Assembly: GCA_040905525.1 (NCBI GenBank)
Contig: JBBDRJ010000018.1
Coordinates: 88,769 to 152,768 of the forward strand
DNA length: 64,000 nucleotides
Direction of reading: 5' to 3'
Source: Actinomycetota bacterium
GTDB taxonomy: Bacteria; Actinomycetota; JAICYB01
How positions within the stretch are numbered: position 1 is the stretch's first letter; every line of letters starts with the position of its first letter. The notes under the pieces were generated by a model, which saw only the letters and a program-made list of their open reading frames with translations, was not told the DNA's origin and made no database searches. Made by a program: the position numbers and the translations under genes. Shown in pieces: positions 6,099 to 22,432 of the stretch.

Positions 6099-7133
6099 TC
6101 AGTTGCTGAGCTGGTCGAACGTGCACTCCTCCGGCTTCTTGTCGTCACGCCAGCGGACGAATCCGGCCGCGTGCCGGAACCGCTGGCCGGATTGCACGTA
6201 GTCGTAGGTGACCTCGCACACCAGCGTCGGTTCGATCGATGTCCACTCGTATTCCTTACCGCCCGTCCAGCGGCTCTGAGCTCCGGGCCCCCACTCTTCC
6301 GGCGCCCCGAACCCGGCGCCGCTTACGTTGTGCAGCGGCTCCAGGATCTTGACCAGTTCTTTGCGCTCCTTAGCGCTGAACGACGCGGTGTGGCCGATGT
6401 AGCGCAGGTTCCCATCGTCGTACAACCCCAGTAGCAGCGATCCGACGCCACCGTGCTTGTGCGGGCGGTACCCGCCCACGACGCAGTCGGCCGTGCGCTT
6501 GTGTTTGATCTTGATCATCACCCGGTCGCCGGGCGAATAAGGAAGTGTCAGCTTCTTCGCGACGATACCGTCGCATTTCACCTTCTCCAGCTCGACGAAC
6601 CAGTCCTGCGCGACGTCGGCATCGTCCGTGCAGGGTGTGAGATGGAACGTCGGACCGGGCAACGTCGCCGGTGCGCCGGGTTCCTTGGGACGCTTCTTAC
6701 CGAAGACTCCCGTCAGGACGCGCAGCCGTTCGGCGAGCGGTTCGTCACACAGGTTCTTGTCGGTGCCGAGGATGTCGAACACGACGAAGCTGGCCGGGGT
6801 CTCGCCGGCCAGCTTGTTCACGCGCGACGCGGCCGGGTGAAGCCGCGCCTGCAAAGCGTCGAAGTCGAGCCCGGAATCCGACGGCAGGATGATCTCGCCA
6901 TCGACGACGCATGGATCGGGCAATGCGTCACGCAACAGCTCCTCGACCTCGGGGAAGTACCGATTAAGGGGACGGCCGTTACGACTGTCGATCTGTACGA
7001 GATCGCCATCACGGAAGACGATCGCTCGGAAGCCGTCCCACTTCGGTTCGTAGATCCACTCGTCGCCGCGTGGGACCTCGTCTTTGCCCTTGGCGAGCAT
7101 CGGCTTCACGGGAGGCTTAACGGGTAGTGACAT
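6099..7133 (-). CDS. ligC: ATP-dependent DNA ligase (LigC-like, ligase domain only)
   Basis: 344 aa; adenylation motif I KWDGFR (KxDG), overall ATP-dependent ligase core with no appended polymerase or nuclease domain. Confidence 0.75.
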   Translation of the reverse strand: MSLPVKPPVKPMLAKGKDEVPRGDEWIYEPKWDGFRAIVFRDGDLVQIDSRNGRPLNRYFPEVEELLRDALPDPCVVDGEIILPSDSGLDFDALQARLHPAASRVNKLAGETPASFVVFDILGTDKNLCDEPLAERLRVLTGVFGKKRPKEPGAPATLPGPTFHLTPCTDDADVAQDWFVELEKVKCDGIVAKKLTLPYSPGDRVMIKIKHKRTADCVVGGYRPHKHGGVGSLLLGLYDDGNLRYIGHTASFSAKERKELVKILEPLHNVSGAGFGAPEEWGPGAQSRWTGGKEYEWTSIEPTLVCEVTYDYVQSGQRFRHAAGFVRWRDDKKPEECTFDQLSN

Positions 7134-7167
7134 ACTCCGATGGTCTCAGGTCTTCGGGGGAGGCGTC

Positions 7168-8160
7168 ATGCGATTCGTTGAAGCGGGCGGAGCAAGACTC
7201 TCGGTCATCGGGCTCGGCTGCTGGCAATTCGGTTCATGGGACTGGGGGTACGGTAACGACTACGCCCAGACGACCTCGATCGAAATAACGAACCGAGCAC
7301 TTGATCTCGGCGTGAACCTTGTGGACACCGCCGAGCTCTACGGATTCGGGCGGTCCGAGAAGATCGTGGGCCGGGCCATCGCCGAGCGGCGGCACGAGGC
7401 GTTCCTGGCGACGAAGCTCCTTCCAGTGATGCCCGTTGCGCCGATCGTCGAGCAGCGGGCGAAGGCGAGCATCGCCCGCATGCACGTGACGAACCTCGAT
7501 CTCTATCAGATCCATTGGCCGAATCCTGTCGTCGGTGACGGCACGGCGATGACCGGGATGCGCCGGCTGATCGACGCCGGCCTGGTTCGTCACGCAGGAG
7601 TTAGCAACTATCCGTTGTCGCGGTGGATGTCTGCGGATCGGGCTTTGGGCATGCCGGTACTGTCGAACCAGGTCCGTATGAACCTCGTCGATCGGCGTCC
7701 GCTCGTCGACCTTGTCCCCTTCGCGCGCAGCGAGGGACGCATCGTGATCGCCTACAGTCCGTTGGCGCAGGGGCTTCTCGGCGGGCGCTACGACCCCGAC
7801 AACGTGCCGACCGGAGTGGCGCGTCGCTCCAACCCGCTGTTCCTGCCCGAGAACCTCGAGCGAGCCACAACGCTGATAGGTGCGCTTCGTGACATAGCGG
7901 CGAGTCATCAATGCACGCCGGCTCAGATCGCGCTGGCCTGGGTGGTGCGCCATTCCAACGTCGTCGCGATCCCGGGTGCCTCGAGCGTTGAGCAGTTGGA
8001 GGCCAACGTCGCTGCGGCCGAGATCGAGCTCACTGAATCGGAAGCCCGCCAGCTCGAGGAAGCCGCCGACGCCTTCGAGCCCATCAGAGGAGCGGCCGCT
8101 GTTCGAGAGATGGCCGAGTCGGTCGTGTCCGGCCTTCGCGGCCGATTGGGACTTCGCTAG
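7168..8160 (+). CDS. Aldo/keto reductase
   Basis: ORF 7084..8160; start moved to ATG 7168 (RBS GGGGGAGG); MRFVEAGGARLSVIGLGCWQFG... typical AKR N-terminus. Confidence 0.8.
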   Translation: MRFVEAGGARLSVIGLGCWQFGSWDWGYGNDYAQTTSIEITNRALDLGVNLVDTAELYGFGRSEKIVGRAIAERRHEAFLATKLLPVMPVAPIVEQRAKASIARMHVTNLDLYQIHWPNPVVGDGTAMTGMRRLIDAGLVRHAGVSNYPLSRWMSADRALGMPVLSNQVRMNLVDRRPLVDLVPFARSEGRIVIAYSPLAQGLLGGRYDPDNVPTGVARRSNPLFLPENLERATTLIGALRDIAASHQCTPAQIALAWVVRHSNVVAIPGASSVEQLEANVAAAEIELTESEARQLEEAADAFEPIRGAAAVREMAESVVSGLRGRLGLR

Positions 8161-8210
8161 GCAGGAACGTTACAGTAGGACTGTCATATAGCTGGCTCTG
8201 AGGAGCTCCG

Positions 8211-9383
8211 ATGACCACGCCTACGCAGACCTTCGACTGGACCGATCAGGCCTTTCTGTCCGACCCCTATCCGCATTACCGCGCGCTGCGCGAGCGCGAC
8301 CCTGTGCACTACAACGCGTCGCGTGGGACGTGGGCGCTAACGCGCTACAACGACATAGTCGCCGTCTTGCGCGATCACGATCGGTTCTCGGCCGAACGCG
8401 GGCCGGGCGCCGAAGACCCGGACTTCCCCCGCTCGATGCTCGGCTCCGATCCGCCCCATCACACTCGGCTGCGGAACCTCGTGAACAAAGCGTTCACCGC
8501 ACGAACCGTCGAGCGGCTTCGGGTGCGCATCCAAGAGCTCGTCGACGCCAATCTGGACCGAGTCGCCGAGCGTGGAGAGATGGAGGTCGTCAACGACTTC
8601 GCTTACCCCCTGCCGATCACGGTCATCGCCGAGATGCTCGGGGTGCCGGCGGACGACCGCGACTTCTTCCGCGAAGCGTCGTCCAAGATCGCGGTCGCTC
8701 TCGGCCCGATCGAAGACATGCAGATCGCCATGCGCGCCCTGGAGGGACGCAACCAGCTCATCGCATATTTCAACGAGCTCATCCCCAAGCGATCCGGCGA
8801 CGACGGCGACGATCTGATCACGGCATTGCTCCGGGCAGAGGAAGCCGGTGACTTCCTCAGTCACGGCGAGCTCCTGGCCATGCTGCTCCTCTTGCTCGTG
8901 GCCGGGCACGAGACGACTGTGAACCTCATCGGCAACGGATTGATCGCTCTCCTGCGAAATCCGGATCAGCTCGAACGTCTGCGAAGTGAAGAAGGGATCG
9001 AGCGGAAAGCAACGGAGGAGTTGCTGCGCTACGACTCTCCCGTCCAGTTCACCGGACGGGTCGTCCTGGAAGATGTCGAGATCGGCGGCAAGACCATCCG
9101 CGCCGGTCAGGGGCTGACGACGCTTCTCGCTTCGGCAAACCGCGATCCGGAGCTCTTCGAGGATCCGGACATGCTCGACCTGACCCGCGATCCGTGCCCG
9201 CACCTGTCCTTCTCGGCCGGGATCCACTTCTGCCTGGGTGCCCAGCTGGCGCGCCTGGAGGGCCAGATCGCCCTGTCGACGATCGTTCGCAGATTCCCCG
9301 ACATCGCGATCGCGACCGACAAGCTCGAGTGGCGGCCGGCGCCGATCCTGCGCGGTGTGGTGGCGTTGCCGGTTACGTTCTAG
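8211..9383 (+). CDS. Cytochrome P450
   Basis: 390 aa; heme-binding loop FSAGIHFCLGAQLA, AGHETT, ELLRYDSPV. Confidence 0.9.
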   Translation: MTTPTQTFDWTDQAFLSDPYPHYRALRERDPVHYNASRGTWALTRYNDIVAVLRDHDRFSAERGPGAEDPDFPRSMLGSDPPHHTRLRNLVNKAFTARTVERLRVRIQELVDANLDRVAERGEMEVVNDFAYPLPITVIAEMLGVPADDRDFFREASSKIAVALGPIEDMQIAMRALEGRNQLIAYFNELIPKRSGDDGDDLITALLRAEEAGDFLSHGELLAMLLLLLVAGHETTVNLIGNGLIALLRNPDQLERLRSEEGIERKATEELLRYDSPVQFTGRVVLEDVEIGGKTIRAGQGLTTLLASANRDPELFEDPDMLDLTRDPCPHLSFSAGIHFCLGAQLARLEGQIALSTIVRRFPDIAIATDKLEWRPAPILRGVVALPVTF

Positions 9384-9581
9384 CGCGTGACTGAAGACTG
9401 ATCACAAGGAGTCGCTACGCTCCATCCTGAGAGTCGGCCCTGCAACGTAATATTCGTTCTGCTCGACAGCCTCAATCGCCATGTCCTGGACGCCTACGGG
9501 GACGGCAGCGAGTTCGACACGCCCAACCTCGACCGCTTCGCGAAGGGCGCGATCAAGTTCGAGAACCACTACTCCGGCGCG

Positions 9582-10982
9582 TTGCCCTGCATGCCTGCGC
9601 GGCACGACCTGCTATGTGGTGCATGGGACTTTCCATGGAAGCCGTGGGGCTCGATAGAGATCTGGGAGGAGCCGCTCACCGAGGCGCTTCGACGCGAAGG
9701 TGTGTGCACGAAGCTTGTCAGTGATCACCCGCACCTGTTCGAGAGCGGCGGCGAGAACTATCACGTGGGCTTCTCCGCGTGGGACTACCAGCGTGGGCAC
9801 GAAGGCGACCCCTGGCGCACGCGCCCCGACGCGTCGTGGCTCGGCGCGCCGTCGTTCGGTCGCGGCTGGCTGCCCTACGACACCTCCCGCGGCTGGTTCC
9901 GAAGCGAGGAGAACTTCCCCGGCCCCCGGACGATGACCGCGGCCGCGCGCTGGCTCGACGAAGAGGCGCAGGCGAGCTCGGGCCGGGACTCGATGGACGG
10001 CCTGCCCGAACATGCCGACCGTTACGAGCGCTTCCTGCTCTTCGTCGACGAGTTCGACCCGCATGAGCCTTTCGACACACCCGAGCCGTACGCCTCGATG
10101 TACGACGAGGCTTGGGAAGGACCGCACCTCATCTGGCCGCCGTACATACGCGGCGCGCAGGAGCGGGGCGTGCTCACGTCCGAACAGGCACGCCAGGTGC
10201 GCGCCCAGTACGGCGGCAAGCTCACGATGATCGACGCATGGTTCGGCCGGATGCTCGACGCAATCGACAACAACGAGTACTGGGACGACACGGCGGTAAT
10301 CGTGACGACAGACCACGGGCACTACCTGGGCGAGAAGGACGCGTGGGGGAAGCCGCCCATCCCGATCTACGAGACGATGGGACACATCCCCTTGCTCGTC
10401 CGCTGGCCGGGAGCCGAGCCGCGAACCATCAACGCCCTGACGACATCAGTGGACATCGCAGCCACCATCGTCGACGTGTTCGGAGCGTCCTTCCGTCACC
10501 CGACGCACGGTCGTTCTCTGCTCCCGTTGATCACGGGGGAGTCGACGTCGGTTCGTGACTGGATGCTCTCGGGGATCTGGGGCCGCGAGATCCACCTGCT
10601 CTGGGAAGGAAAGAAGTACGCGCGAGCACCGGTGGGCGCCAACGTGCCGCAGAGCCTGTGGTCCAACCGCTGGTCGACTATGCCCGTTTGGCGTTTCGCG
10701 GATCTGAAGCTGCCGGTCCCCGACGACCGCGCGATCCTCGACCACATGCCGGGGTCGACGATCCCCGTTATCCGCCAACCCTTCCGGGAAGGGGACATGC
10801 TCCCCTTCTGGGCGTGGGGTCCCTTCGACGGCAACGAGCTCTACGACATCTCAAACGATCCGGGCGAGGACGCCGATCTCGCCGGTACACCGCTCGAGAA
10901 GGTGGCGGCCGACCTGCTCCACGACGCTCTGAAAGAGATCGAAGCTCCGAGCGATCACTATGTTCGGCTCGGCCTAGACTGA
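9582..10982 (+). CDS. Sulfatase family protein (formylglycine-dependent type)
   Basis: 466 aa from TTG; CMPAR (C-x-P-x-R) at the very N-terminus, TTDHGHYLGEKDAWGKP; conserved N-terminal region continues in frame upstream to about 9444 with no canonical start (see findings). Confidence 0.7.
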   Translation: MPCMPARHDLLCGAWDFPWKPWGSIEIWEEPLTEALRREGVCTKLVSDHPHLFESGGENYHVGFSAWDYQRGHEGDPWRTRPDASWLGAPSFGRGWLPYDTSRGWFRSEENFPGPRTMTAAARWLDEEAQASSGRDSMDGLPEHADRYERFLLFVDEFDPHEPFDTPEPYASMYDEAWEGPHLIWPPYIRGAQERGVLTSEQARQVRAQYGGKLTMIDAWFGRMLDAIDNNEYWDDTAVIVTTDHGHYLGEKDAWGKPPIPIYETMGHIPLLVRWPGAEPRTINALTTSVDIAATIVDVFGASFRHPTHGRSLLPLITGESTSVRDWMLSGIWGREIHLLWEGKKYARAPVGANVPQSLWSNRWSTMPVWRFADLKLPVPDDRAILDHMPGSTIPVIRQPFREGDMLPFWAWGPFDGNELYDISNDPGEDADLAGTPLEKVAADLLHDALKEIEAPSDHYVRLGLD

Positions 10983-10986
10983 CTCC

Positions 10987-11661
10987 GTGACAGACAAGGA
11001 CATGCTCGACATCACGTTCTACATGGCTTGCCTGAAGCTGGTCGGACGTCGCTGCGTGGTCATCGGCGGCGGTCCGGTTGGCCTCGAGAAGGTCGACGGT
11101 CTGCTGGAGTGCGACGCCGACGTCACCCTGATCGCGCGGGAAGCGGTGGATGCCCTGAAGGAGCTCGCGAACGAGGGCTCCATCAAATGGGAGCAACGCT
11201 CGTACGAGGGCCCGGCCGACCTCGAGGGCGCCTTCATCGTGATCGCCGCCACCGAGAAGACGGATCTCAACACTCAGGTGTTCAACGATGCCGAGCATCG
11301 GGCAATGCTCTGCAACGTCGTCGATGTACCGCCGTTGTGCAACTTCATCCTTCCGGCCATCACGCGCACCGGACCCATCGCTATCGCGATCTCTACGGCC
11401 GGTGCCTCGCCCGCGCTGGCCAAGCGGATGAAGCGCGAGATCGCCGAGACCTACGGCGCGCCGTACGCGCGTCTGGCCGAGATCCTCAACGCTTATCGCG
11501 AGTGGGCGAAGTCCACGCTTCCGACCTACCAGGACCGCAAGGAGTTCTTCGAGTCGATCGTGAACGGTACGCCCGACCCCGTCGAGCTCCTGCGCGCGGA
11601 CGATGAGCAAGCCGTTCACGATCTGATCGCGTCACGGCAGAGGACGGCCGTCCCCGCCTGA
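10987..11661 (+). CDS. Precorrin-2 dehydrogenase / sirohydrochlorin ferrochelatase family (CysG N-terminal-like)
   Basis: 224 aa; Rossmann motif VVIGGGPVGLEKVDGLL, overall siroheme synthase N-domain-like. Confidence 0.65.
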   Translation: MTDKDMLDITFYMACLKLVGRRCVVIGGGPVGLEKVDGLLECDADVTLIAREAVDALKELANEGSIKWEQRSYEGPADLEGAFIVIAATEKTDLNTQVFNDAEHRAMLCNVVDVPPLCNFILPAITRTGPIAIAISTAGASPALAKRMKREIAETYGAPYARLAEILNAYREWAKSTLPTYQDRKEFFESIVNGTPDPVELLRADDEQAVHDLIASRQRTAVPA

Positions 11662-11667
11662 TCTCAT

Positions 11668-12585
11668 TTGACGGCGATCGAGATTGTCGGCCTTCGTAAA
11701 ACGTTTCGCCGCCGCTTAGGCCGTGCCAACCTCGCCGTCGACGGGCTCTATCTCCGGGTGCCGGCCGGCGGCGTCTACGGATTCCTCGGCCCCAACGGAT
11801 CGGGCAAGACCACGACCATCCGGTGTCTGCTCGGCCTGGTCCGTCCCGACGAAGGTGAGTGCCGGATGCTCGGCGCGAACACGCGCGGAGGGCTTGCCGA
11901 AGTAGTGGACCGAGTGGGTTCGATCGTCGAGACGCCGTCGTTCTTCGGCGGATTCTCGGGCCGGACGAATCTGGAACTGCTGGCCGGAGCGCGCGGGTTC
12001 TCGCGAGCTCGGATCGACGAAGCGCTCGAGCGCGTCGGGTTGGCCGATCGCGCCGGCGATCGCTTCCGCACCTACTCCCTGGGGATGAAGCAACGTCTCG
12101 GTTTGGCCGCCGTCCTTATCAAGGATCCGGAAGTGCTCGTGCTGGACGAACCGGCCAACGGGCTGGACCCAGCGGGCCTCAAGGAGGTCCGCGACCTGTT
12201 GCGATCGCTCGCCGACGACGGACGAACGGTTTTCCTGTCCAGCCATCTGCTCGGCGAGGTTCAGGCCATCTGCGATTCGGTGGCGATCCTCTCGCGCGGA
12301 CGCTGCATCGCGCAGGGACCGGTGGACGAGGTGCTGGCCGTCCGCGGAGGAAATGCGTTCGTCGTTCGAGCCGCCAAGATCAGAGAGGCGAAGCGCGCAC
12401 TCGACCAGGCCGGGTTGATGGCGACGTTCCGTGGGGACAAGAGCCTGCGCGTGATCGCGCAGTCGCAAGGCCCCGCCAGGATCACGCGAGCCCTAGCCGA
12501 GGCCGGCATCTACCTCACGGAGCTCCGGCCCGAGGAGATCAGCCTCGAAGCCGTCTTTCTAGAGCTCACGGGCGAGGAATCATGA
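11668..12585 (+). CDS. ABC transporter ATP-binding protein
   Basis: 305 aa; Walker A GPNGSGKTT, signature YSLGMKQRL, Walker B VLVLDEP; TTG start. Confidence 0.85.
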   Translation: MTAIEIVGLRKTFRRRLGRANLAVDGLYLRVPAGGVYGFLGPNGSGKTTTIRCLLGLVRPDEGECRMLGANTRGGLAEVVDRVGSIVETPSFFGGFSGRTNLELLAGARGFSRARIDEALERVGLADRAGDRFRTYSLGMKQRLGLAAVLIKDPEVLVLDEPANGLDPAGLKEVRDLLRSLADDGRTVFLSSHLLGEVQAICDSVAILSRGRCIAQGPVDEVLAVRGGNAFVVRAAKIREAKRALDQAGLMATFRGDKSLRVIAQSQGPARITRALAEAGIYLTELRPEEISLEAVFLELTGEES

Positions 12586-13547: not shown

Positions 13548-14491
13548 CGCTTCGCCAGACGCCCGACCTCTTCCATCTCGTCATCGCTCAGCCGCCAGCC
13601 CGCGGCATCGACATTGGCGCGAACCTGCTCCGGCTTGGTCGCGCCCGCGATGACGGAGGCGATTACCGGCTTGGAGGCCAGCCAGGAAATGGCCAGCTCG
13701 AGGAGCGTATGGCCGCGCGCCTCGGCGAAGGTGCGCAAACGTCCGATGATCTCGAAGTTCTCGTCGGTCAGCGTCTGCTCGGCCCGCTCGGGCATGGCCT
13801 GGGCCATGAGTGTTATGCGTGTGCCTTCGGGGCGGTCGTCCTTGGACTTGTACTTGCCGGTCAGCAATCCTGAGGCGAGTGGGAAGTACGGCAACAGGCC
13901 GAGCCCGTTGCGCTCGCAGGCGTCGTCGACGTCACCTTCCAAACCGCGCTCGAGGAGGCTGTAGTTGTTCTGTGCCGATGCGAACGGCGTGAGGCCCTTG
14001 TCGCCGGCGATCCGCGTGCATTTGTCGATGTGCTTGCCGGCATAGTTCGAGCATCCGATCTCGCGAACCTTGCCCTCGCGGACCAGCTCGTGCAGTACCC
14101 CGAGGGTCTCGTCGAAGGGTGTGTCCCGATCGGGGAAGTGGTGCTGGTATAGGTCGATTCGGTCCGTGCCCAGCCGTTTGAGGCTGTCTTCTACGGCTTG
14201 CTTGATCCAGCGCGGGCTGCCGCCCTGCGACTGTCCGTCGTCGCTCATGGGGGAGCCGAACTTCGTGGCGATCACGACCTCGTCGCGGCGGGGGCCGAGG
14301 GCCTTTCCGAGGAATACTTCGGACTTGCCGCGACCTCCGTATACGTCGGCCGTGTCGAAGAAGTTGATCCCGGCGTCGATGCATGCGTCCACGACGGCTT
14401 TGGTGCCGGCCTCGTCCATCCGCATGCCGAAGTTGTTGCAGCCCAGCCCGACCAGCGACACCTCGACGCTTCCCAATTTCCGCGTTTCCAT
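13544..14491 (-). CDS. Aldo/keto reductase
   Basis: ORF 13544..14863; start moved to internal Met METRKLGSVEVSLVGLGCNNFG; AKR motifs throughout. Confidence 0.8.
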   Translation of the reverse strand: METRKLGSVEVSLVGLGCNNFGMRMDEAGTKAVVDACIDAGINFFDTADVYGGRGKSEVFLGKALGPRRDEVVIATKFGSPMSDDGQSQGGSPRWIKQAVEDSLKRLGTDRIDLYQHHFPDRDTPFDETLGVLHELVREGKVREIGCSNYAGKHIDKCTRIAGDKGLTPFASAQNNYSLLERGLEGDVDDACERNGLGLLPYFPLASGLLTGKYKSKDDRPEGTRITLMAQAMPERAEQTLTDENFEIIGRLRTFAEARGHTLLELAISWLASKPVIASVIAGATKPEQVRANVDAAGWRLSDDEMEEVGRLAKR

Positions 14492-14620
14492 CTTGTTAGT
14501 TTGTCGACGGATGCCAGAGAGGTCCAAACCGGCGCGGGAGGAGATTCGACCTAGGCTCGGAGGGAGCAGGTCGTATTCGGTGGCTCGACAAGACACGTCA
14601 GAGAGAGAGGCTGGGACGGC

Positions 14621-15694
14621 ATGATGCACCTCGCGGCGGCGGCCCAGACGGCCGGTCAACAGCCGTTCGTCTCGCTCGACGTGCCTTTCTGGACATGGCC
14701 TGTGCTCGGCGCGGCACTCACGGTGCTTCTCGTCGCCGACCTCTTGCTCGTCCATCGAACTCCCCACGACGTGAAGTTCCGAAACGCTGCGATCGAGTCG
14801 GCCGTGTGGATCACGATCGGAGTTGGGTTCACCGGCTTGCTGGCCTGGGCGTACGGTGGTCAAGCCGCCACGGAGTACATCACCGGATTCCTGATCGAGA
14901 AGAGTCTGTCGATCGACAACGTCTTCGTCTGGTCGGTGATCTTCACCTACTTCGGAGTACCGGGGATGTATCAGTTCCGGGTCCTCTTCTGGGGAATCTT
15001 CGGGGCCCTCGTCCTACGCGGTCTGTTCATCTTCACGGGGATCGCACTCCTCGAGAGGTTCGACTTCGTGCTTTACATCTTCGGCGCGTTCTTGCTGTAC
15101 ACGGCCGTCAAGCTCGCGCGTCATTCGGGGGGAGAAGTGCACCCCGAGAGCAACGTCGCGCTCAAGCTCATCCGGCGCGTGGTTCCCATATCGACGTCCT
15201 ACGACGGTCAGAAGCTGTTCACGCGTTCGACGGGACGGCTGATCGCAACTCCGCTGTTCGCGGTCCTGATCCTCATCGAGACGACCGACGTGCTCTTCGC
15301 GTTCGACTCGATCCCGGCGATCCTCGCCGTTTCGCGCGAACCGTTCATCGTGTTCTCGGCCAATGCCTTCGCGATTCTGGGTCTTCGAGCGCTGTACTTC
15401 TGCCTCGCCGGACTCGCCGGCAAGTTCCGCTACCTGAATCAGGGGCTAGGTGTGATCCTTGCGTTCGTTGGTGTGAAGATGCTGATCGTCGAGTGGTATC
15501 ACGTGCCGACGTGGGCCAGCCTCGGCCTGATCGCCGTCGTCCTTGCGGTGACGATCACCCTCAGCTTGCGCGCCGATAAGCGCGCCCGTGGACAAGGACA
15601 AGCGGCGTCGGTTACCCCCACGCCGCCTGACGTGATGACGGACGCACCGATATCACGCGGGCCCGAGGACGAAGGTCGTCCCCCCAGCTTGTAG
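14621..15694 (+). CDS. TerC family integral membrane protein
   Basis: 357 aa; multi-TM with TerC-like segments (EKSLSIDNVFVW, DSIPAILAVS). Confidence 0.75.
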   Translation: MMHLAAAAQTAGQQPFVSLDVPFWTWPVLGAALTVLLVADLLLVHRTPHDVKFRNAAIESAVWITIGVGFTGLLAWAYGGQAATEYITGFLIEKSLSIDNVFVWSVIFTYFGVPGMYQFRVLFWGIFGALVLRGLFIFTGIALLERFDFVLYIFGAFLLYTAVKLARHSGGEVHPESNVALKLIRRVVPISTSYDGQKLFTRSTGRLIATPLFAVLILIETTDVLFAFDSIPAILAVSREPFIVFSANAFAILGLRALYFCLAGLAGKFRYLNQGLGVILAFVGVKMLIVEWYHVPTWASLGLIAVVLAVTITLSLRADKRARGQGQAASVTPTPPDVMTDAPISRGPEDEGRPPSL

Positions 15695-16390
15695 GGCGAT
15701 GCGCGGCCCGTCGTAGCTCCACTCCAAACGGTCGATACCGGGCTCGGCCGTACCGGCTTCGATCCGTATCCGTCCGCCGGCCGGCCAGATGAGCTCGATC
15801 CATCCCTCTCCACCGTCGGCCACCTCGCCCTGCAGCAGCGCTTGGTACAGGCCGAGCGAGCGATCTATGTCGTCGGTGGCTACCACGACGCGATCCAGAT
15901 GAGCTCGCACGGCTGCCGGCTCCGGCGGTTCCGGCCACCAGCGACCCGGGCCGTATTCGCCGGCGACGGCGTCGAAGTCGACGGCATCGAAGGCCGATTG
16001 CGCGATCTGCACCACAGTGCCGCCGGCTTCCTTCGGATGGATGAACGCTTCCTTCCAGAAGTCGTTTTCGATATTCACCCCGACGGGGTGGTAACCGGCT
16101 TTCGTCACGCGCTCCAGCTCGCCGCGGATGTCGTCGGTCTTGAACGTCAGGTGATGGGGACCTTCGCCGTCGCGGTCGAGGAAGCGCTCGAGGAAGTCGT
16201 TGGCCTCCACGTTGAAGGGCTCGAGGAGCTCAATGCGGAGGTTCCCGGCTTCGACCTGCATCGCGCGGAATCCGATGTTTACTCCACCGAAGATCACAGG
16301 AACGCCGAGGTCGCCGACGAGAGCGTTGAGGACCTCGGTGACGTCGTTGACGGCGATCGCCACGTGATCCAAGTCGATCCTCTTCACCAC
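15653..16390 (-). CDS. VOC family protein (glyoxalase/bleomycin resistance/dioxygenase fold)
   Basis: ORF 15653..16672; start moved to GTG next to the upstream stop (VVKRIDLDHVAIAVNDV...); two VOC-like halves. Confidence 0.6.
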   Translation of the reverse strand: MVKRIDLDHVAIAVNDVTEVLNALVGDLGVPVIFGGVNIGFRAMQVEAGNLRIELLEPFNVEANDFLERFLDRDGEGPHHLTFKTDDIRGELERVTKAGYHPVGVNIENDFWKEAFIHPKEAGGTVVQIAQSAFDAVDFDAVAGEYGPGRWWPEPPEPAAVRAHLDRVVVATDDIDRSLGLYQALLQGEVADGGEGWIELIWPAGGRIRIEAGTAEPGIDRLEWSYDGPRIALQAGGTTFVLGPA

Positions 16391-17835
16391 TTCTCTCCGA
16401 TCTCCGAGGACGGGGGTTCGTCCAGCAGGTGCTCGCGTGCGAACGCGTGCCAGTTCGCTTCGGCCTCGAGGTGGCCGAGCACGGCAGCCGTGCCGAACGT
16501 GTAGCGCTGCCAGATCATCAGCATCGCGGGGAACTGGAGCATCTCCTGGATGTCGCGGAACCGAGAGTCGGGAAGGGCTACGTCGCGGAACGTATCGCCG
16601 ACGATCTTGCGCGTGTATCGGAACGGCTCGTTGTCGACGATCGGACGAAGCATGGCGCAGAAGAACTCCCACAGCCGCTCGTTGTCGACGATGGTTCCGC
16701 CGGGGATCACTCCGAGGTCACGAAGCGATGACTCCAGGAGCTGAGGGTCGCGGTGCACCATGGCGAGTCCCGGCGCACGCACCAGGCGTCGCTCGTCTGC
16801 GTCGAGGCGCTTGACCAATCCAAAGTCGAGGAAACAGATCCGTCCGTCGTCCATGAAGATGTAGTTGCCCGGATGCGGGTCTCCCGAGAAGAGCCCGTCG
16901 ACATTCACCGACCCGTAGACGAAGCGGTTGATGATCTCTCCGTAGCGGTTCTTCTCTTCTTGAGAGTCGCCGAGCACGTCGTAGAAGCGGCGTCCGGACA
17001 CCAGCTCCGAGGTCAGAACGCGCTCGGCCGAAAGCTCCGGGACGACCTCGGCGATCTTCACGAAGGTGTGGCCGCGGTACTTGTCGGCGAAGTACTCCTG
17101 GTTGGCGGCCTCTTTGTAGTAGTCGAACTCCTCGGAGAATCGCTCCACGACCTCTTCCAGCAGTGCGCGGGCGTCGAATCCGCCGAACATCGCGGACACC
17201 GTCTGGAAGAGCATGTCGGCGTTCTGCAAATCGGCGAGGATCGCCTTGTCGACGCCCGGGTACTGAACCTTCACCGCGACATCGCGTCCGTCGTGCGTTT
17301 GCGCGCGATGAACCTGACCGATCGATGCCGCGGCCATGGCGACGGGCTCGAAGCTCGCGAAAGCTTTCTCGGGCGGGGTGCCCAGCTCGCTTTCGACGAC
17401 GTCGACGACGAGCTCGTAGGCCATGGGCGGCGCAGCCGATTGCAGCTGGGCCAACTGTTTCTGCACGCCGTCCGGAAGCCCGTCGATGGCGAAGGACGCC
17501 ATCTGGGCGAGCTTCATCACGGCGCCCTTCATGTTCCCCATGACCTCGAGGACGTCGGAGGCCGAGCGCATGGCCGCCTCTTCCCTGATCTCCTTCTTTT
17601 TTTCTCTGCTGCGACCGATGGTCCGGACGCGCGCCGCACCCATGCGGGCTCCCAGCGATGTGCCCATGCGGGCGAGCTGCGCGCGGCGCTCCTCGGGATC
17701 GGTGACGATGCCTTCGCCCTCGGAAGGACGACGCCTCCTCAGGTATCCGCGGACGGCGTCTCTAATCGACCGGGCGAACAGCTTGAGCATCTGGGGCGTC
17801 GACGACCGGCGGGGGCGGGGGCGCGGACGGGACAT
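16384..17835 (-). CDS. ABC1/UbiB family atypical protein kinase
   Basis: 483 aa; ASIGQVHRA...DVAVKVQYPGV and downstream kinase-like motifs typical of ABC1/AarF. Confidence 0.8.
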   Translation of the reverse strand: MSRPRPRPRRSSTPQMLKLFARSIRDAVRGYLRRRRPSEGEGIVTDPEERRAQLARMGTSLGARMGAARVRTIGRSREKKKEIREEAAMRSASDVLEVMGNMKGAVMKLAQMASFAIDGLPDGVQKQLAQLQSAAPPMAYELVVDVVESELGTPPEKAFASFEPVAMAAASIGQVHRAQTHDGRDVAVKVQYPGVDKAILADLQNADMLFQTVSAMFGGFDARALLEEVVERFSEEFDYYKEAANQEYFADKYRGHTFVKIAEVVPELSAERVLTSELVSGRRFYDVLGDSQEEKNRYGEIINRFVYGSVNVDGLFSGDPHPGNYIFMDDGRICFLDFGLVKRLDADERRLVRAPGLAMVHRDPQLLESSLRDLGVIPGGTIVDNERLWEFFCAMLRPIVDNEPFRYTRKIVGDTFRDVALPDSRFRDIQEMLQFPAMLMIWQRYTFGTAAVLGHLEAEANWHAFAREHLLDEPPSSEIGEKW

Positions 17836-17836
17836 C

Positions 17837-18502
17837 TCAGACGGGCTGGGCGCCGCTCTTGGAAGCGGGGGACACCCCCGCGCCCCCGGGCAGGTCGAGG
17901 GCCAGGCTTCGCCACAGATACCAGGACGCGACGGATCGCCACGGTCGCCAGGGCTCCGCCACGCGCGCCATGTTGTCCTTCGTGGGTTCGAGGTTGTAGG
18001 CGCGCTTCACGGCGTTGCGGATGCCGAGGTCGTCGACGGGCCAGACGTCGGGGCGTCCGAGCTTGAAGATCAGGAACATCTCGGCCGTCCACCGCCCGAT
18101 GCCCTTGACGGCCACGAGGTCGGCGATGATCCGCTCGTCGTCGTAGCGGCCGATCCCGTTGAGCCTGAGCTCGCCGCCGACCACGTGCTGAGCCAGGTCT
18201 TTCGCGTAGGCGACCTTGGCGTTGGACATACCGGTGGCGCGTAGTTGCTTAACGGTGGCGGAAAGGATGTCGACGGGCAGGATCTTGCGTCCGTTGGGGT
18301 GCAGTGCGACGAGGCGCTGCCAGATCGTCTCGGCGGCCTTGGCCGAAAGCTGCTGGCCGACGATGGCGCGCAGGATCGTCGTGAAGTTGTCGCCCCGGGC
18401 GCCGGGCTTCAGCGCACACGGACCGACGGCCTTCACGATCCGGCGCATGACCGGATCCGAACGCGACAGATGCTTGGTTGCGGTAACGACGTCCAACGGC
18501 AT
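17837..18502 (-). CDS. DNA-3-methyladenine glycosylase II family (AlkA-like, HhH-GPD)
   Basis: 221 aa; HhH-GPD region VKGIGRWTAEMFLIF...D. Confidence 0.7.
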   Translation of the reverse strand: MPLDVVTATKHLSRSDPVMRRIVKAVGPCALKPGARGDNFTTILRAIVGQQLSAKAAETIWQRLVALHPNGRKILPVDILSATVKQLRATGMSNAKVAYAKDLAQHVVGGELRLNGIGRYDDERIIADLVAVKGIGRWTAEMFLIFKLGRPDVWPVDDLGIRNAVKRAYNLEPTKDNMARVAEPWRPWRSVASWYLWRSLALDLPGGAGVSPASKSGAQPV

Positions 18503-18541
18503 GGGAGCCGAGGCTATCGGTCCTGGAGCCCCTCTGCCTCG

Positions 18542-19372
18542 CTAGCGGATGAGGCGAGACATCCGGCGGTCGGCCAGAATCTTGCCTCCGGTCTGGCACG
18601 TCGGGCAGTACGTGATCTCGTGTGACTCGAACGACACCCGTCGTAGATCGGATGCGCAAACCGGACAAGGCTCGCCGGCCCGGTTGTGGACGACCCAGTG
18701 ATCGCCGAGCTTCGTAGGAAGTCCGCCGGCTCGCTTGCGCTCGTGCACGAGTCCGTCCTCCAGCACGGCGGCGATGGACTCGAGCAGGCGCTCTCGTTCG
18801 GTTGGCTTCAGCGATTTGAGCGAGGCGAAGGGCGACAGCTTCGCCAGGTGGAGCGCGTCGTCGGTGTAGCCGCGTCCCAGGCCCGCTACGGTTCGCTGGT
18901 CGCGCAGGATCGTGTGGATGCGGCGGTTGTCGTCCGAGGTTCGGATGAGCTCGACGAACTCGGGCGAGTCGAGTTCCGGGCCGAGCTTCACCAGCGGGCC
19001 GTCGTCGCCGGGAGCCAAGACCCACCACCCGGCCTTGCGATCCGTCCCGTACTCCTTGATCAGGACCGCACGTCCCTCGAAGACGATGCGCGCCACCGAT
19101 CCTTTGGGCCGTGTCGACTTCGCGGGTTCCTCGATGTCGACCCGGCCCCCTTGGGACAGGTGGAAGAGCAGCCGCGGTCCATCGAAGTCGAGAAAGACGT
19201 ACTTCCCCCGGCGTCCCACGCCGGTGACCGCCTTGCCGAAGAGCTCCTGGGGGCCGGGGGACACGGTCTTGAGCGCGGAGAACTGCAACGGCTCGATCCG
19301 GCGCAGGGTCTTTCCCTTTATGTGCTCGCCGAGTCGCTCGGCGAGTGCTTGCATCTCCGGACGTTCCGGCAT
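18542..19372 (-). CDS. Fpg/Nei family DNA glycosylase (formamidopyrimidine/endonuclease VIII-like)
   Basis: 276 aa; N-terminal MPERPE (catalytic Pro2/Glu3), C-terminal zinc finger CPVC...CPTC. Confidence 0.8.
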
Positions 19373-19402
19373 ATGTCGAGCGTAGCGACTAAACGTGAGG
19401 TA

Positions 19403-20248
19403 CTAATCGCGAGCTTTGGCCAGCTCCGGGCGTCCCGACCAGGTCCAAGCCACGTTCTTCGCGCTCACGCCGATCAACACGCCGTGGGTCGAGCTCGGGT
19501 GCAGGAACAGGCTCGCGCCGTCGTGGTCAGGGTTGCCGGCAAAGCGGGCGCCGGCCGACTTGAGACGCCCACCCAGAGCCGGAACGTCGGCGCACTCGGT
19601 GAAGAACATGTACGGACCCTCGCCGCGCCGAAGGAAGAACTTGCCCATCGCCTTCTCGGTGTCGTGCGGGTACACGACCTCGATGCGGTCGAGCAGGCGG
19701 GGTGGGTCGAACAGGGTGAGCATGCCTTCGTATCCGTACTGGTCGCTCTTGATGGGAGAGAACTTCGCTCCGTCGATCCCGAACGCGTCGGTCCAGAACT
19801 GATTGGCGGCCTCCCAGTCGCCCACCAGGTGCGTCACTTCGTAGATGAACGAGATCGCACCCACCGGTGCGCGCTCCACTAAGGGCCCGACGAACGTGTT
19901 CAGCCCGAACGTTTTCCCCGGATCCAGAAGGAGGTGGTCGTGCTCCTCGGTAAACCCGACCCCCTGCGTAGCCAGATGTTTACCGAGCGCGCCGACATCT
20001 TTGGTCGTGAATACGGCGCCGTAGAGCCCTTCTCCCCAGCGGTCGACGTAGTCGGCGACCGGGCCCGGACCGGTGGGCACGGCCAGCCGGATCAGGTCGG
20101 TGCCACAGGAAAGCGAAGTAACGTCGGCGCCGATCAGATCGCTGTGCTGTTCGCGTGCGATCTCGGTTCCGAAGATCGCTTCGTAGGTCTTGGCCGCGGC
20201 GGCTGCGTCGCGTACCGCGAGGATCACACCGTTCATCGTCTCGATCAT
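19403..20248 (-). CDS. VOC family protein
   Basis: ORF 19403..20305; start moved to Met MIETMNGVILAV giving ATGA overlap with the upstream P450 stop. Confidence 0.6.
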   Translation of the reverse strand: MIETMNGVILAVRDAAAAAKTYEAIFGTEIAREQHSDLIGADVTSLSCGTDLIRLAVPTGPGPVADYVDRWGEGLYGAVFTTKDVGALGKHLATQGVGFTEEHDHLLLDPGKTFGLNTFVGPLVERAPVGAISFIYEVTHLVGDWEAANQFWTDAFGIDGAKFSPIKSDQYGYEGMLTLFDPPRLLDRIEVVYPHDTEKAMGKFFLRRGEGPYMFFTECADVPALGGRLKSAGARFAGNPDHDGASLFLHPSSTHGVLIGVSAKNVAWTWSGRPELAKARD

Positions 20249-21456
20249 GCCGACCACCTCACTGGTAGGGAATGAAGGCCTCGAAGTGTGATCGTGTCCC
20301 GCCACTGCGGTTCGTCGGTCGCAAGCTCCAGGTTCGGGAATCGGCTCAGGAGCGCATTGAAGACGATCTGTCCTTCCAAGCGCGCGAGACCGGCTCCGAG
20401 GCAGAAGTGCGCACCGGCGCCGAAGGACAACACGGATGTCTTCTCTCTTGTGATGTCGAGACGGTCGGGATCGGTGAAAACAGCAGGATCGCGGTTGCCG
20501 GCTCCGAGAAGCACTACGGCGAGCTCGCCCTCGGGTATCACCGTCCCACCGACCTCTATTTCTGCGGTCGCGGTGCGAGCCGTGAGCTGAACAGGGGAGT
20601 CGTAACGCAGGAGCTCTTCAACGGCACTCTTCGCAAGCGACGGATCGTTGCTCAGCTTGCTCATCTGATCGGGGTTCCGGAGCAGCGCGAGCAACCCATT
20701 GCCGATGAGGTTCTGGGTCGTCTCGTGCCCGGCGATGAAGACCAGGACGCACAGCGCCATCAGCTCGTCGTTCGCGAGACGATCCTTCTCGTTCTCAGCT
20801 GCGAGCAACGCGCTGACGAGATCGTCCTGCGGAGCTTCGCGTCTCTTCTCCATCAGCCCCAGGAAGTAAAGGGCGAAATTGCCGAGCGTGCCCATTGCCT
20901 TCTCGAGTGCTCCGGGCGGCAGCCAGGGATCGAGGATCGGCGCGACGTCCCCAGACCAACCGCGGAACAGATCGCGGTCTTCCAGCGGCACACCCATGAG
21001 CTCGCAGATCACCAGTGCTGGCAGCGGATAGGCGAGATCCGCGATGACGTCCATCTCTTTGTTGCCGGCGACGTCGTCGAGCATCCCGTTCACCAGCTCC
21101 GTGATGTGTGCACGAAGTCGTTCCACGGTGCGCGGCGTGAAGGCCTTGTTGACCAGGACGCGCAGTCTCGTGTGGTCCGGCGGGTCGGTGAACAGAAGCA
21201 CGCGCCCGGCCGCGTTCCCCATGAAATCGAAGCTATCGTCGCCCGAGGCTTCGATCGTCTCCTCGCGTAGTTCGGCGAGGGCGGTCGCTTTGCGTGGATC
21301 GACGGAGAAGCGGTCGTCGCGCAGGACGGCGAGGATGTCGTCGTACCGCGTGAGGGTCCAAAGGCCGGGATCGGCGCGGTGCATCGGCGCGGTCTCTCGG
21401 TAGTGGCGATAGACGGGGTAGGGGTCTGCGCGATGACTTTCGACGACCTCCGCCAT
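20245..21456 (-). CDS. Cytochrome P450
   Basis: ORF 20245..21615; start moved to Met at 21456 (MAEVVESHRADPYPVY...); heme loop FGAGAHFCLGAGLA; paralogous to the P450 at 8211. Confidence 0.85.
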   Translation of the reverse strand: MAEVVESHRADPYPVYRHYRETAPMHRADPGLWTLTRYDDILAVLRDDRFSVDPRKATALAELREETIEASGDDSFDFMGNAAGRVLLFTDPPDHTRLRVLVNKAFTPRTVERLRAHITELVNGMLDDVAGNKEMDVIADLAYPLPALVICELMGVPLEDRDLFRGWSGDVAPILDPWLPPGALEKAMGTLGNFALYFLGLMEKRREAPQDDLVSALLAAENEKDRLANDELMALCVLVFIAGHETTQNLIGNGLLALLRNPDQMSKLSNDPSLAKSAVEELLRYDSPVQLTARTATAEIEVGGTVIPEGELAVVLLGAGNRDPAVFTDPDRLDITREKTSVLSFGAGAHFCLGAGLARLEGQIVFNALLSRFPNLELATDEPQWRDTITLRGLHSLPVRWSA

Positions 21457-21604
21457 AACGGGCGAGATCGGCGCGTCGAAGACCTGCTCTTCCGTGGTCA
21501 ATGAGGCCCTTCCTCGCTTCGGCAGGAAGCGCCTCAGCGATGGGTTTTGACTCTGTAAAGAGCATGAACGACGCTTGGGGCCACCGCAACGAGAGGGGAG
21601 TGCC

Positions 21605-22432
21605 ATGACGGACACGAAGACCGATACCGACGTCGTTTCCTACGAGGTCTCCGAGGGGATCGCCACGCTCACGCTCAACCGCCCAGACCGTCTCAACGCG
21701 TGGACCGGTGGCCTGGCCCGCCGTTATTACTCCTTGCTGGAGCAGGCGGCGGCCGACGACAACGTCCGCGTGATCGTCGTCACTGGGGCCGGGCGCGGCT
21801 TCTGCGCCGGTGCCGACATGGACAGCCTGCAGGGCAACGCCTCCACCGACGAATCGGATGCCGGGCTCGACCGTCCGATCTGGTTCCCCACCACGATCTA
21901 CAAGCCGATCATCGCGGCCATCAACGGTGCCTGCGCCGGGATCGGGTTCTGCGCGGCCCTCATGTGCGACCTGCGTTTTGCCGCCGCCGGCGCGAAGTTC
22001 ACAACGGCCTTCGTCCGGCGTGGACTCATCGCCGAGCACGGCAGCTCGTGGGCCCTTCCGCGACTGATCGGGCACGCAGCGGCTCTCGACCTTCTCTACT
22101 CGGGCCGCGTGTTCTTGTCCGAGGAAGCAAAGGAGCTCGGTGTCGTGAACCAGGTTTTCGCGCCGGAAGAGCTCGTGGAACGCACGCGCGAGTACGCGAA
22201 GGACCTGATCGATCACTGCTCGCCACGGTCGATGGCCACGATCAAGGCCGAGATCTACCGGCACTGGAACATGGACCTGGCACCTTCGGTGAAGGAAGCC
22301 AACCAGCTGATGACGCGCTCGTTCGGATTCCCCGACTTCAAGGAGGGCGTGCAGAGCTTCGTCCAGAAGCGCAACCCGGACTTCGATCCGCTGCCCGCCG
22401 ACTACGACGTCCTGCCGAAGGACTGGACCTAA
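21605..22432 (+). CDS. Enoyl-CoA hydratase/isomerase (crotonase family)
   Basis: ORF 21575..22432; start at ATG 21605 after RBS GAGAGGGGAG; VIVVTGAGRGFCAGADM oxyanion-hole motif. Confidence 0.85.
   Translation: MTDTKTDTDVVSYEVSEGIATLTLNRPDRLNAWTGGLARRYYSLLEQAAADDNVRVIVVTGAGRGFCAGADMDSLQGNASTDESDAGLDRPIWFPTTIYKPIIAAINGACAGIGFCAALMCDLRFAAAGAKFTTAFVRRGLIAEHGSSWALPRLIGHAAALDLLYSGRVFLSEEAKELGVVNQVFAPEELVERTREYAKDLIDHCSPRSMATIKAEIYRHWNMDLAPSVKEANQLMTRSFGFPDFKEGVQSFVQKRNPDFDPLPADYDVLPKDWT

Follow-up and report, generated by a model that had tools for sequence, protein, structure and literature searches.

The locus described here raises the question of why two genes for DNA glycosylase-like proteins should stand in a single run with genes for a cytochrome P450, two proteins of the VOC superfamily (VOC1 and VOC2) and an ABC1/UbiB-family ATPase. 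The run lies on the minus strand of a 64,000-nucleotide stretch of an Actinomycetota genome (assembly GCA_040905525.1, contig JBBDRJ010000018.1, positions 88,769 to 152,768), which is referred to as a whole as the window. The initial annotation had suggested that this grouping may be part of a coordinated response to agents that alkylate or oxidise. This suggestion was not borne out: the linkage belongs to a single clade, is split in one locus of that clade (L170), is not accompanied by LexA or RecA-NDp motifs, and includes VOC proteins of an acyl-CoA-like kind. We consider that the block is probably a lineage-specific composite operon, which arose once in an uncultured clade of soil Actinomycetota from modules that are separate elsewhere. 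It gives the appearance of an ordinary operon that mixes known families of different function, rather than of a dedicated DNA-damage defence system. Nothing indicates that the six genes depend on one another, and we infer that functional interdependence is absent.

The evidence that carries this reading comes from gene order in relatives. Four of the six genes (those encoding the Fpg-like, AlkA-like, ABC1 and VOC1 proteins) served as anchors. For the Fpg-like gene, 87 loci were obtained by an alignment-based scan of species-representative genomes and by context look-ups, and a neighbour-joining tree with 87 tips was built. The complete block was found in the window and in six other loci (L001, L002, L005, L006, L044 and L171), with a broken form in L170. 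These block-bearing loci form one exclusive clade of 8 of the 87 tips and therefore point to a single origin of the block. All eight also keep the flanking crotonase gene (divergent), the TerC gene (convergent) and an aldo-keto reductase gene, and most of them keep MDMPI_N and amidase genes; insertions and deletions are seen in the flanks, where a major facilitator superfamily (MFS) gene is inserted or the cyclophilin or MDMPI_N gene is missing. Since the flanking genes are kept equally, the conservation of the block is not separable from general synteny.

Outside this clade the genes part company. The Fpg-like orthologues of about 79 other species-level genomes (61-67% identity) lie among unrelated genes, such as those for a pyridoxal phosphate decarboxylase, SnoaL-like proteins, pirin, a short-chain dehydrogenase/reductase and MFS transporters. 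In L003 a fragment of an IS110-family transposase gene (7064-7588) is found directly upstream of the Fpg-like gene, which fits the variable context of this gene. The most recurrent neighbour overall (cluster 1) was discarded, as it consists of spurious antisense open reading frames (ORFs) typical of high-GC DNA. Among 80 metagenome loci anchored on the AlkA-like gene (43-65% identity), none has an adjacent ABC1 gene, VOC gene or member of this Fpg-like family. ABC1 orthologues share at least 61% identity, and the next homologues reach 52% or less. The linkage is absent from seven ABC1- or VOC1-anchored contexts outside the clade; among them, the ABC1 homologues of L169 (64% identity), L085 and L086 (51% and 44%) stand without all the partner genes, and the VOC1 homologues of L087, L088 and L172 (46-48%) without the P450 and repair genes. 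In total, the linkage was never recreated independently in more than 160 anchored loci. Synteny in relatives, a check named by the initial annotation, is thus largely lacking, being confined to one clade of 8 of 87 tips and split in L170; the comparison does not point to a functionally coupled operon conserved across independent lineages.

The broken form in L170 deserves attention. In this locus (region 7965-12566) an ORF of 260 amino acids (aa), weakly GNAT-like, lies between the VOC1 and Fpg-like genes, and three genes on the opposite strand separate the Fpg-like gene from the AlkA-ABC1 pair: an ORF of 106 aa, an exporter gene (ABC_membrane and ABC_tran domains) and a Y_phosphatase3 gene. 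VOC2 is absent. Because opposite-strand genes separate them, the two glycosylase genes of L170 would be on different transcripts. The sister locus, L044, has an intact block, and for this reason the disruption in L170 appears to be derived and tolerated.

In the window, the six ORFs are contiguous and co-directional (Table 1), and their families, assigned with Pfam and NCBIfam models, are those given in the initial annotation. The overlapping stop and start codons that it mentions are seen at P450/VOC1 (-4 nt, ATGA overlap) and ABC1/VOC2 (-7 nt, GTGGTGA overlap, or -4 nt if the second GTG is the start), and the AlkA/ABC1 junction measures 1 nt (TGAgATG). The VOC1/Fpg and Fpg/AlkA junctions measure 30 and 39 nt, respectively. 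The limits of the unit were revised. The P450 gene had been started at ATG 21456; the 15 residues upstream of this Met are conserved in relatives, where the Met itself is replaced by Ile or Leu, and the start was therefore moved to TTG 21501 as the likely one. The extent of 16384-21456 was too short, and the six-gene unit covers 15653-21501. At the other end, VOC2 and the convergent TerC gene share 42 nt at their 3' ends. Of the 27 directons in the window, which have a mean of about 2.2 genes, this run of six is the longest, a length that is notable, not extreme. We estimate that two glycosylase genes would be adjacent by chance in a few percent of genomes. The G+C content of the window is about 65% and uniform (0.63-0.68), and the flanks are syntenic in relatives; a horizontally acquired island was ruled out on these grounds. 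All six proteins look functional, and their catalytic motifs are intact in the predicted sequences.

Table 1. Features of the six-gene block and of its boundaries (positions refer to the window unless a locus is named; aa, amino acids; nt, nucleotides; HhH, helix-hairpin-helix).
Feature	Position	Strand	Basis or remark
Cytochrome P450 (418 aa, CYP107-like, first gene)	20245-21501	-	PF00067
VOC1 (two-domain VOC, 281 aa)	19403-20248	-	PF00903 + PF13669
Fpg/Nei-like glycosylase/AP-lyase-like protein (276 aa)	18542-19372	-	three Pfam domains
AlkA/Mag1-type short HhH-GPD protein (221 aa)	17837-18502	-	PF00730
Soluble ABC1/UbiB-family ATPase-like protein (483 aa)	16384-17835	-	PF03109
VOC2 (245 aa)	15653-16390	-	PF13669
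Divergent P450-crotonase intergenic region (103 nt)	21502-21604		presumed promoter region for both genes
GC-rich hairpins right after the VOC2 stop, within the TerC 3' end	15600-15652	-	fold
Enoyl-CoA hydratase/isomerase (crotonase), divergent, upstream boundary	21605-22432	+	PF00378, 169 bits
TerC-family membrane protein, convergent, downstream boundary	14621-15694	+	PF03741, 175 bits
P450 copies compared	L005 7881-9128; L006 7880-9127; L001 3553-4806		identity to the window gene

Tight junctions are found in seven of the eight clade loci, the window included, and they are kept down to 53-67% protein identity; in L002, L171 and L044 the gaps at VOC1/Fpg and Fpg/AlkA shrink to between -4 and +6 nt. 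The initial annotation had named internal promoters or terminators as elements that would separate the genes. A scan of the block gave nothing above shuffled controls for either kind of signal, the promoter scan being limited to the sigma-70-type consensus, and the claim of an undivided run stood in this respect. The two longer gaps, VOC1/Fpg and Fpg/AlkA, fold like shuffled sequence (z of -0.5 and -0.6, respectively). On the contrary, the 101 nt at 15600-15700, which span the VOC2 stop, fold at -51 kcal/mol (z of -2.8), and 1 of 200 shuffles was as stable; the hairpins after VOC2 are probably the end of the transcript. Co-transcription of the six genes is likely, judging from the tight co-directional junctions, the lack of an internal terminator, the unstructured gaps and the hairpins spanning the VOC2 stop.

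The region upstream of the P450 gene (21502-21604) contains no sigma-70 consensus. It is partly conserved in the clade, with a block of the form TGCGG..CCCA(A)GC..CAT, in an alignment that was informative for five sequences (L005, L006 and L044 were left out). No LexA box (TCGAAC-N4-GTTCGA, up to 3 mismatches) and no RecA-NDp motif of the PafBC/ClpR type (TGTCRGTG-N8-TANNNT, up to 2 mismatches) was found in this region or in the internal gaps, and SOS or PafBC regulation was set aside accordingly. Over the 64 kb, near-matches to TCGAAC-N4-GTTCGA (up to 3 mismatches) number 82, as compared to 51 ± 7 in dinucleotide shuffles; this excess is probably an effect of codon usage and falls mostly in coding sequence. 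No Rfam element reached the gathering thresholds anywhere in the window, not even a tRNA, and a riboswitch or other RNA element was rejected on this basis. No recognisable Shine-Dalgarno sequence precedes the start of the Fpg-like or of the AlkA-like gene.

The Fpg/Nei-like protein contains the Fapy_DNA_glyco, H2TH and zf-FPG_IleRS domains, which scored 57.7, 44.8 and 22.1 bits with PF01149, PF06831 and PF06827 (cut-offs of 25.5, 34.7 and 21.3, respectively). Pro2, Glu3 and the Lys of the RRGK motif are present (MPERPE..., GRRGKY), as are the four conserved Cys of the C4 zinc finger. Among relatives P2 and E3 hardly vary, even at 30% identity, and R55, G56 and K57 are invariant within the subgroup of the window protein. 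A structural model (predicted local distance difference test, pLDDT, of 73) gave MutM as best Foldseek match, with a template modelling (TM) score of 0.66-0.73, an E-value of 5e-19 and 24-26% identity. By its catalytic residues, domains and modelled fold, the protein belongs to the H2TH Fpg/Nei superfamily, and a glycosylase/AP-lyase (AP, apurinic/apyrimidinic) activity is predicted. On the other hand, it remains below the equivalog cut-offs for Fpg (119.7 vs. 203.3 with TIGR00577; 113.9 vs. 212 with NF002211), for Nei (62.5 vs. 252 with NF007763) and for Nei2 (54.1 vs. 400 with NF040775).

In a hidden Markov model alignment with L. lactis Fpg, M75 corresponds to Q74 and F111 to A114, the GNIY of the H2TH domain reads GRGY (Arg167, in GLGRGY) and the zinc-finger Arg is replaced by H251 (ESHE). 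All four altered contact residues (Gln74, Ala114, Arg167 and His251) are invariant in the subgroup. On both scores and contact residues the protein thus falls outside the Fpg (MutM) orthologue group. A basic C-terminal tail, CQTGGxxLADRRLSRLLR, is conserved in the sub-family, can be followed in full-length relatives to about 30% identity and is invariant in the subgroup of the window protein. Clustering at 50% identity divides the sub-family into about 283 clusters (E ≤ 1e-30), most of them metagenomic. Across it the H2TH Asn is replaced stepwise, from GIGNAY to GIGRAF and then to GLGRGY, and the subgroup of the window protein no longer has the intercalating Met and Phe of canonical Fpg or the zinc-finger Arg. 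Several gene calls of the sub-family (P0031, P0063, P0071, P0082, P0116 and L170 8770-8788) start at an internal Met (MQALAERL...) and omit the catalytic N-terminal xPELPE. Many database calls of this family are mis-started rather than truncated, given that the DNA contains the omitted upstream codons, starting with GTG, TTG or another codon.

The AlkA-like protein scored 61.3 bits with PF00730 (cut-off of 26.2), and its PDB matches include D. radiodurans 2yg8 (5.6e-41), S. pombe Mag1 3s6i (4e-38), E. coli AlkA 1diz (3e-11) and also 4hsb. The HhH hairpin and the segment with Asp158, GIGRWTAEMF...GRPDVWPVDD158 (the Asp lying in WPVDDLGIRN), are invariant in the AlkA-like proteins of the clade, and the Asp motif lines up with the DDL of S. 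pombe Mag1 and of D. radiodurans AlkA2. With the E. coli-type AlkA equivalog NF007641 the score was 46.7 against a cut-off of 229, over model positions 111-273 only. From its sequence, this protein is of the short Mag1/AlkA2 type, without the N-terminal domain of AlkA.

The ABC1 protein scored 204 bits with PF03109 (cut-off of 22.9) and has the motifs AAASIGQVH, VAVKVQ, EFDYYKEAANQ (ExxDxxxEAxN), GDPHPGN and LDFG, with KxGQ reading KLAQ. Its best solved relatives are of the MABP-1 type (5yjz, 1.5e-53; 7cy2, 1e-45), aligned over residues 50-468. Since it is far below the MABP-1 cut-off (201.7 vs. 800 with NF050082), it belongs to a different orthologue group; it is also below the cut-offs of TIGR01982 (UbiB, 181.7 vs. 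487.55) and NF003404 (123.8 vs. 667). In L086, tandem ABC1-family genes are followed by a LigD-type primase-polymerase gene (7001-11032), with an ATP-dependent ligase gene 3 kb beyond (14020-15060); this is a single case of ABC1 genes beside genes of the end-joining or base-excision-repair type.

The P450 scored 113.6 bits with PF00067 and contains FGAGAHFCLG (haem-Cys), AGHETT (I-helix) and EELLR (ExxR); its best PDB matches are BioI 3ejb (3e-91), CYP267B1, CYP164A2 and EryF. It is 88% identical to the L001 protein and 62-64% identical to those of L005 and L006, whose other block genes are 76-95% identical. This discordant history within the clade suggests an in-situ allele replacement or a recombination. 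A second P450 gene of the window (8211-9383) encodes a protein 48% identical to that of the block.

Both VOC proteins fall in the VOC superfamily, and for each the best named match is a sub-threshold one to methylmalonyl-CoA epimerase (TIGR03081; 54.7 bits for VOC1 and 61.8 bits for VOC2, cut-off of 114.95). The AlphaFold model of VOC1 (pLDDT of 90) shows a two-domain VOC, with 4-hydroxyphenylpyruvate dioxygenase and hydroxymandelate synthase as nearest structures (TM score of about 0.7, 10-15% identity). VOC2 scored 45.3 bits with PF13669 (Glyoxalase_4) and also matched PF00903 and PF13468; its PDB matches are the glyoxalase 3oa4 (2e-10) and methylmalonyl-CoA epimerases. An origin of VOC1 and VOC2 as tandem paralogues was rejected (BLASTP E of 0.037). 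In L088 (5788-7840) and L172 (976-2771) a crotonase gene is divergent to the VOC1 homologue, the crotonases being 35-37% identical, and in L172 this pair adjoins genes for a thiolase, a CoA-transferase, a ChsH2-like protein and an acyl-CoA dehydrogenase. The P450 gene sits between the crotonase and VOC1 genes only in the clade. The pairing of crotonase and VOC1 looks older than the block. Because VOC1 homologues pair with a crotonase beside beta-oxidation genes, the role of VOC1 would seem to lie in acyl-CoA metabolism rather than in detoxification, and these results do not favour the detoxification-type label that the initial annotation had given to the VOC proteins.

Within about 15 kb of the block no core genes for polyketide synthases, non-ribosomal peptide synthetases or terpenes were found, and the unit itself contains no transporter or biosynthetic gene. 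The surrounding 30 kb encode miscellaneous metabolic and housekeeping proteins, and no regulator adjoins the block. A natural-product cluster or self-resistance locus was rejected, given the lack of core genes and regulator within about 15 kb and the type of the glycosylases (Fpg/Nei and HhH-GPD). Anti-phage defence was also discarded, as none of the six proteins hit a PADLOC model (E ≤ 0.001). About 8.5 kb from the block, on the minus strand, lies a gene for a core-only ATP-dependent DNA ligase (6099-7133; DNA_ligase_A_M and A_C, 344 aa, LigC-like), which adjoins genes for an acyl-CoA synthetase, an aldo-keto reductase and the second P450.

As we picture it, the composite operon would consist of three modules. 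The P450-VOC1 pair, facing the divergent crotonase, would most likely serve small-molecule or acyl-CoA oxidation; the divergent Fpg/Nei-family glycosylase/lyase would stand by itself; and the AlkA/Mag1-type glycosylase would go with the MABP-1-like ABC1 ATPase, usually followed by the second VOC. Transcription may start in the 103 nt between the P450 and crotonase genes, read through the six genes and end at the hairpins after VOC2, with translation presumably coupled at P450/VOC1, AlkA/ABC1 and ABC1/VOC2. The glycosylases would carry out ordinary base-excision repair, the Fpg-like protein on oxidised or ring-opened purines or AP sites and the AlkA-like protein on alkylated purines. They may merely be expressed along with their neighbours, in a joint arrangement that would be tolerated, not required.

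On a rival explanation, the block is an operon devoted to defence against small molecules that react with DNA (alkylators, oxidants, electrophilic natural products). Conversion or sequestration of the agent would fall to the P450 and VOC proteins and its binding or signalling to ABC1, while the AlkA-type protein would remove N3- and N7-alkylpurines and the Fpg-like protein ring-opened formamidopyrimidine (Fapy) adducts and AP sites. We regard it as unlikely, although several points speak for it and weigh against our own reading. AlkA- and Fpg-type glycosylases are complementary on alkylation damage (7-methylguanine and ring-opened Fapy). The longest directon, with tight junctions kept to 53-67% identity, is some evidence for selection on co-expression, and the tight co-directional packing with translational coupling is kept in seven of eight clade loci. 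The motifs sought for LexA and RecA-NDp are mycobacterial and may differ in the host lineage, which makes their absence weak evidence. Two other clades, one with L060, L061, L063, L072, L077, L081 and L083 and the other with L012 and L080, repeatedly have a longer and distant ABC1 paralogue (30-36% identical, about 540 aa) at 1.3-10 kb from the Fpg-like gene. In the first of these clades a SnoaL-like gene directly upstream of the Fpg-like gene and an opposite-strand pirin gene directly downstream of it are conserved; the genes between Fpg-like and ABC1 vary and are sometimes on the opposite strand, and a general association of the two was rejected in favour of loose synteny, not an operon. The proteome of a pafBC mutant of M. 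smegmatis shows a decrease not only of RecA and RecB but also of two ABC1-family proteins (one being the MABP-1 homologue MSMEG_1954) and of two glyoxalase-family proteins (PMC5656591), and because of this a link of ABC1 and VOC proteins to DNA damage in Actinobacteria is not far-fetched. The altered lesion- and DNA-contact residues of the Fpg-like protein suggest a non-canonical substrate, the nearest solved ABC1 relative, MABP-1, binds macrolides and confers resistance (PMC6208485, PMC8696161), and glycosylases in genotoxic natural-product resistance have precedent (PMC9040887, PMC8626424, PMC8934636). Those self-resistance glycosylases, however, belong to other families (AlkZ/YcaQ and AlkD), and the ABC1 protein reaches 202 of the 800 bits required by the MABP-1 model. 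Moreover, the linkage exists in one clade and was not recreated in the other anchored loci, L170 puts the glycosylases on different transcripts and lacks VOC2, no damage-regulon motif, adjacent regulator, transporter or biosynthetic gene belongs to the unit, and the VOC proteins resemble acyl-CoA epimerases, VOC1 being found elsewhere with crotonase and beta-oxidation genes. A related and quite improbable idea is a free-standing system that neutralises a DNA-reactive small molecule and repairs its damage outside biosynthetic clusters, with ABC1 and the VOC proteins binding or transforming the compound, the P450 oxidising it and the glycosylase pair clearing the adducts, one member of the pair being drawn from the large Fpg/Nei sub-family with its remodelled lesion-contact residues and basic tail.

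The single operon itself can be questioned. The block might consist of two or three transcription units, for example P450-VOC1-Fpg and AlkA-ABC1-VOC2, with hidden internal promoters in the 3' ends of the upstream genes and with the coupling reflecting proximity. L170 shows precisely this partition, and its AlkA-ABC1 pair must have a promoter of its own; VOC1/Fpg (30 nt) and Fpg/AlkA (39 nt) are also the only junctions without overlap or near-abutment. Transcripts that start near or at the start codon are common in Actinobacteria, and the missing Shine-Dalgarno sequences at the Fpg-like and AlkA-like genes are as expected in that case. Nevertheless, we find such a division doubtful: the gaps of -4 to +6 nt in L002, L171 and L044 leave little room for a promoter, neither gap contains a terminator-like hairpin (the z values being those given above), and no promoter consensus was detected in the sigma-70-type scan. 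It is also conceivable that the whole block is a catabolic operon for small molecules (acyl-CoA, lipid or terpenoid), with both glycosylases recruited to a role other than on DNA. The crotonase, the P450 and the VOC proteins, which are like methylmalonyl-CoA epimerases, fit acyl-CoA or lipid oxidation, and several residues with which canonical Fpg contacts DNA are missing from the Fpg-like protein. Yet this protein keeps Pro2, Glu3, the Lys, the H2TH domain, the zinc finger and the MutM fold, the HhH hairpin and the catalytic Asp are in place in the AlkA-like protein, which matches a DNA-3-methyladenine glycosylase structure at 6e-41, and both glycosylase genes occur in unrelated contexts elsewhere; we can hardly credit this explanation.

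The lineage-specific composite operon, which we prefer, matters little as it stands. As an example, it indicates that co-directional, coupled gene strings of high-GC Actinomycetota can join unrelated functions, and that tight spacing alone does not amount to functional coupling. A more useful lead than the operon is the large uncharacterised Fpg/Nei sub-family, which keeps the catalytic residues, yet has altered DNA-contact residues and a conserved tail. Soluble ABC1 ATPases have almost no bacterial functions assigned, and a real link to DNA damage, of which the pafBC proteome of M. smegmatis gives a hint, would be informative, although this locus alone does not establish one; a system that neutralises and repairs, if true, would tie ABC1 ATPases to genome protection in Actinobacteria.

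Among known systems, the best-documented one for comparison is the mycobacterial lhr-nei2 operon, which encodes the Lhr helicase and the AP lyase Nei2 and is induced by DNA damage through PafBC (PMC11323726). The block resembles it in having an actinobacterial Fpg/Nei gene, divergent from the canonical ones, in an operon with a nucleotide-hydrolysing protein that is not a glycosylase. In lhr-nei2, however, the partner is a helicase, and the pair is mycobacteria-wide and damage-induced, whereas the partners here are a P450, VOC proteins, an AlkA-type glycosylase and an ABC1 protein, the Fpg-like protein is not Nei2 (NF040775, 54 vs. 400), no PafBC motif was found and the linkage belongs to one clade. 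Adaptive-response operons, such as the ada-alkB operon with the alkA regulon in E. coli and ada/alkA-ogt in mycobacteria, also group and co-express alkylation-repair genes, an AlkA-type glycosylase included. Unlike them, the block is without an Ada regulator, an Ogt methyltransferase and an AlkB dioxygenase, and its AlkA-like protein is of the short Mag1/AlkA2 type. The loci for self-resistance to genotoxins, with the glycosylases AlkZ/YcaQ, YtkR2/AlkD and TxnU/LldU (PMC9040887, PMC8626424, PMC8934636), have in common with the block that glycosylase genes stand beside genes handling small molecules; their enzymes are of the HTH_42 or HEAT-repeat AlkD families and lie inside biosynthetic clusters, whereas those of the block are of the Fpg/Nei and HhH-GPD types. 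MABP-1 (Rv3197 of M. tuberculosis, MSMEG_1954 of M. smegmatis) is a macrolide-binding ATPase of the ABC1 type and a determinant of resistance (PMC6208485, PMC8696161). The ABC1 protein of the window, of which it is the nearest solved relative, is likewise soluble, the aligned range containing no membrane anchor, and its ATP-site motifs are intact; it differs in scoring 202 bits where the MABP-1 model requires 800. Finally, the Fpg-like protein shares with canonical Fpg/MutM (L. lactis 1tdz and G. stearothermophilus MutM) the fold, the three domains, Pro2, Glu3 and the Lys, and the C4 zinc finger, and is set apart from it by Gln74, Ala114, the Arg of GLGRGY, His251 and the added basic C-terminal tail.

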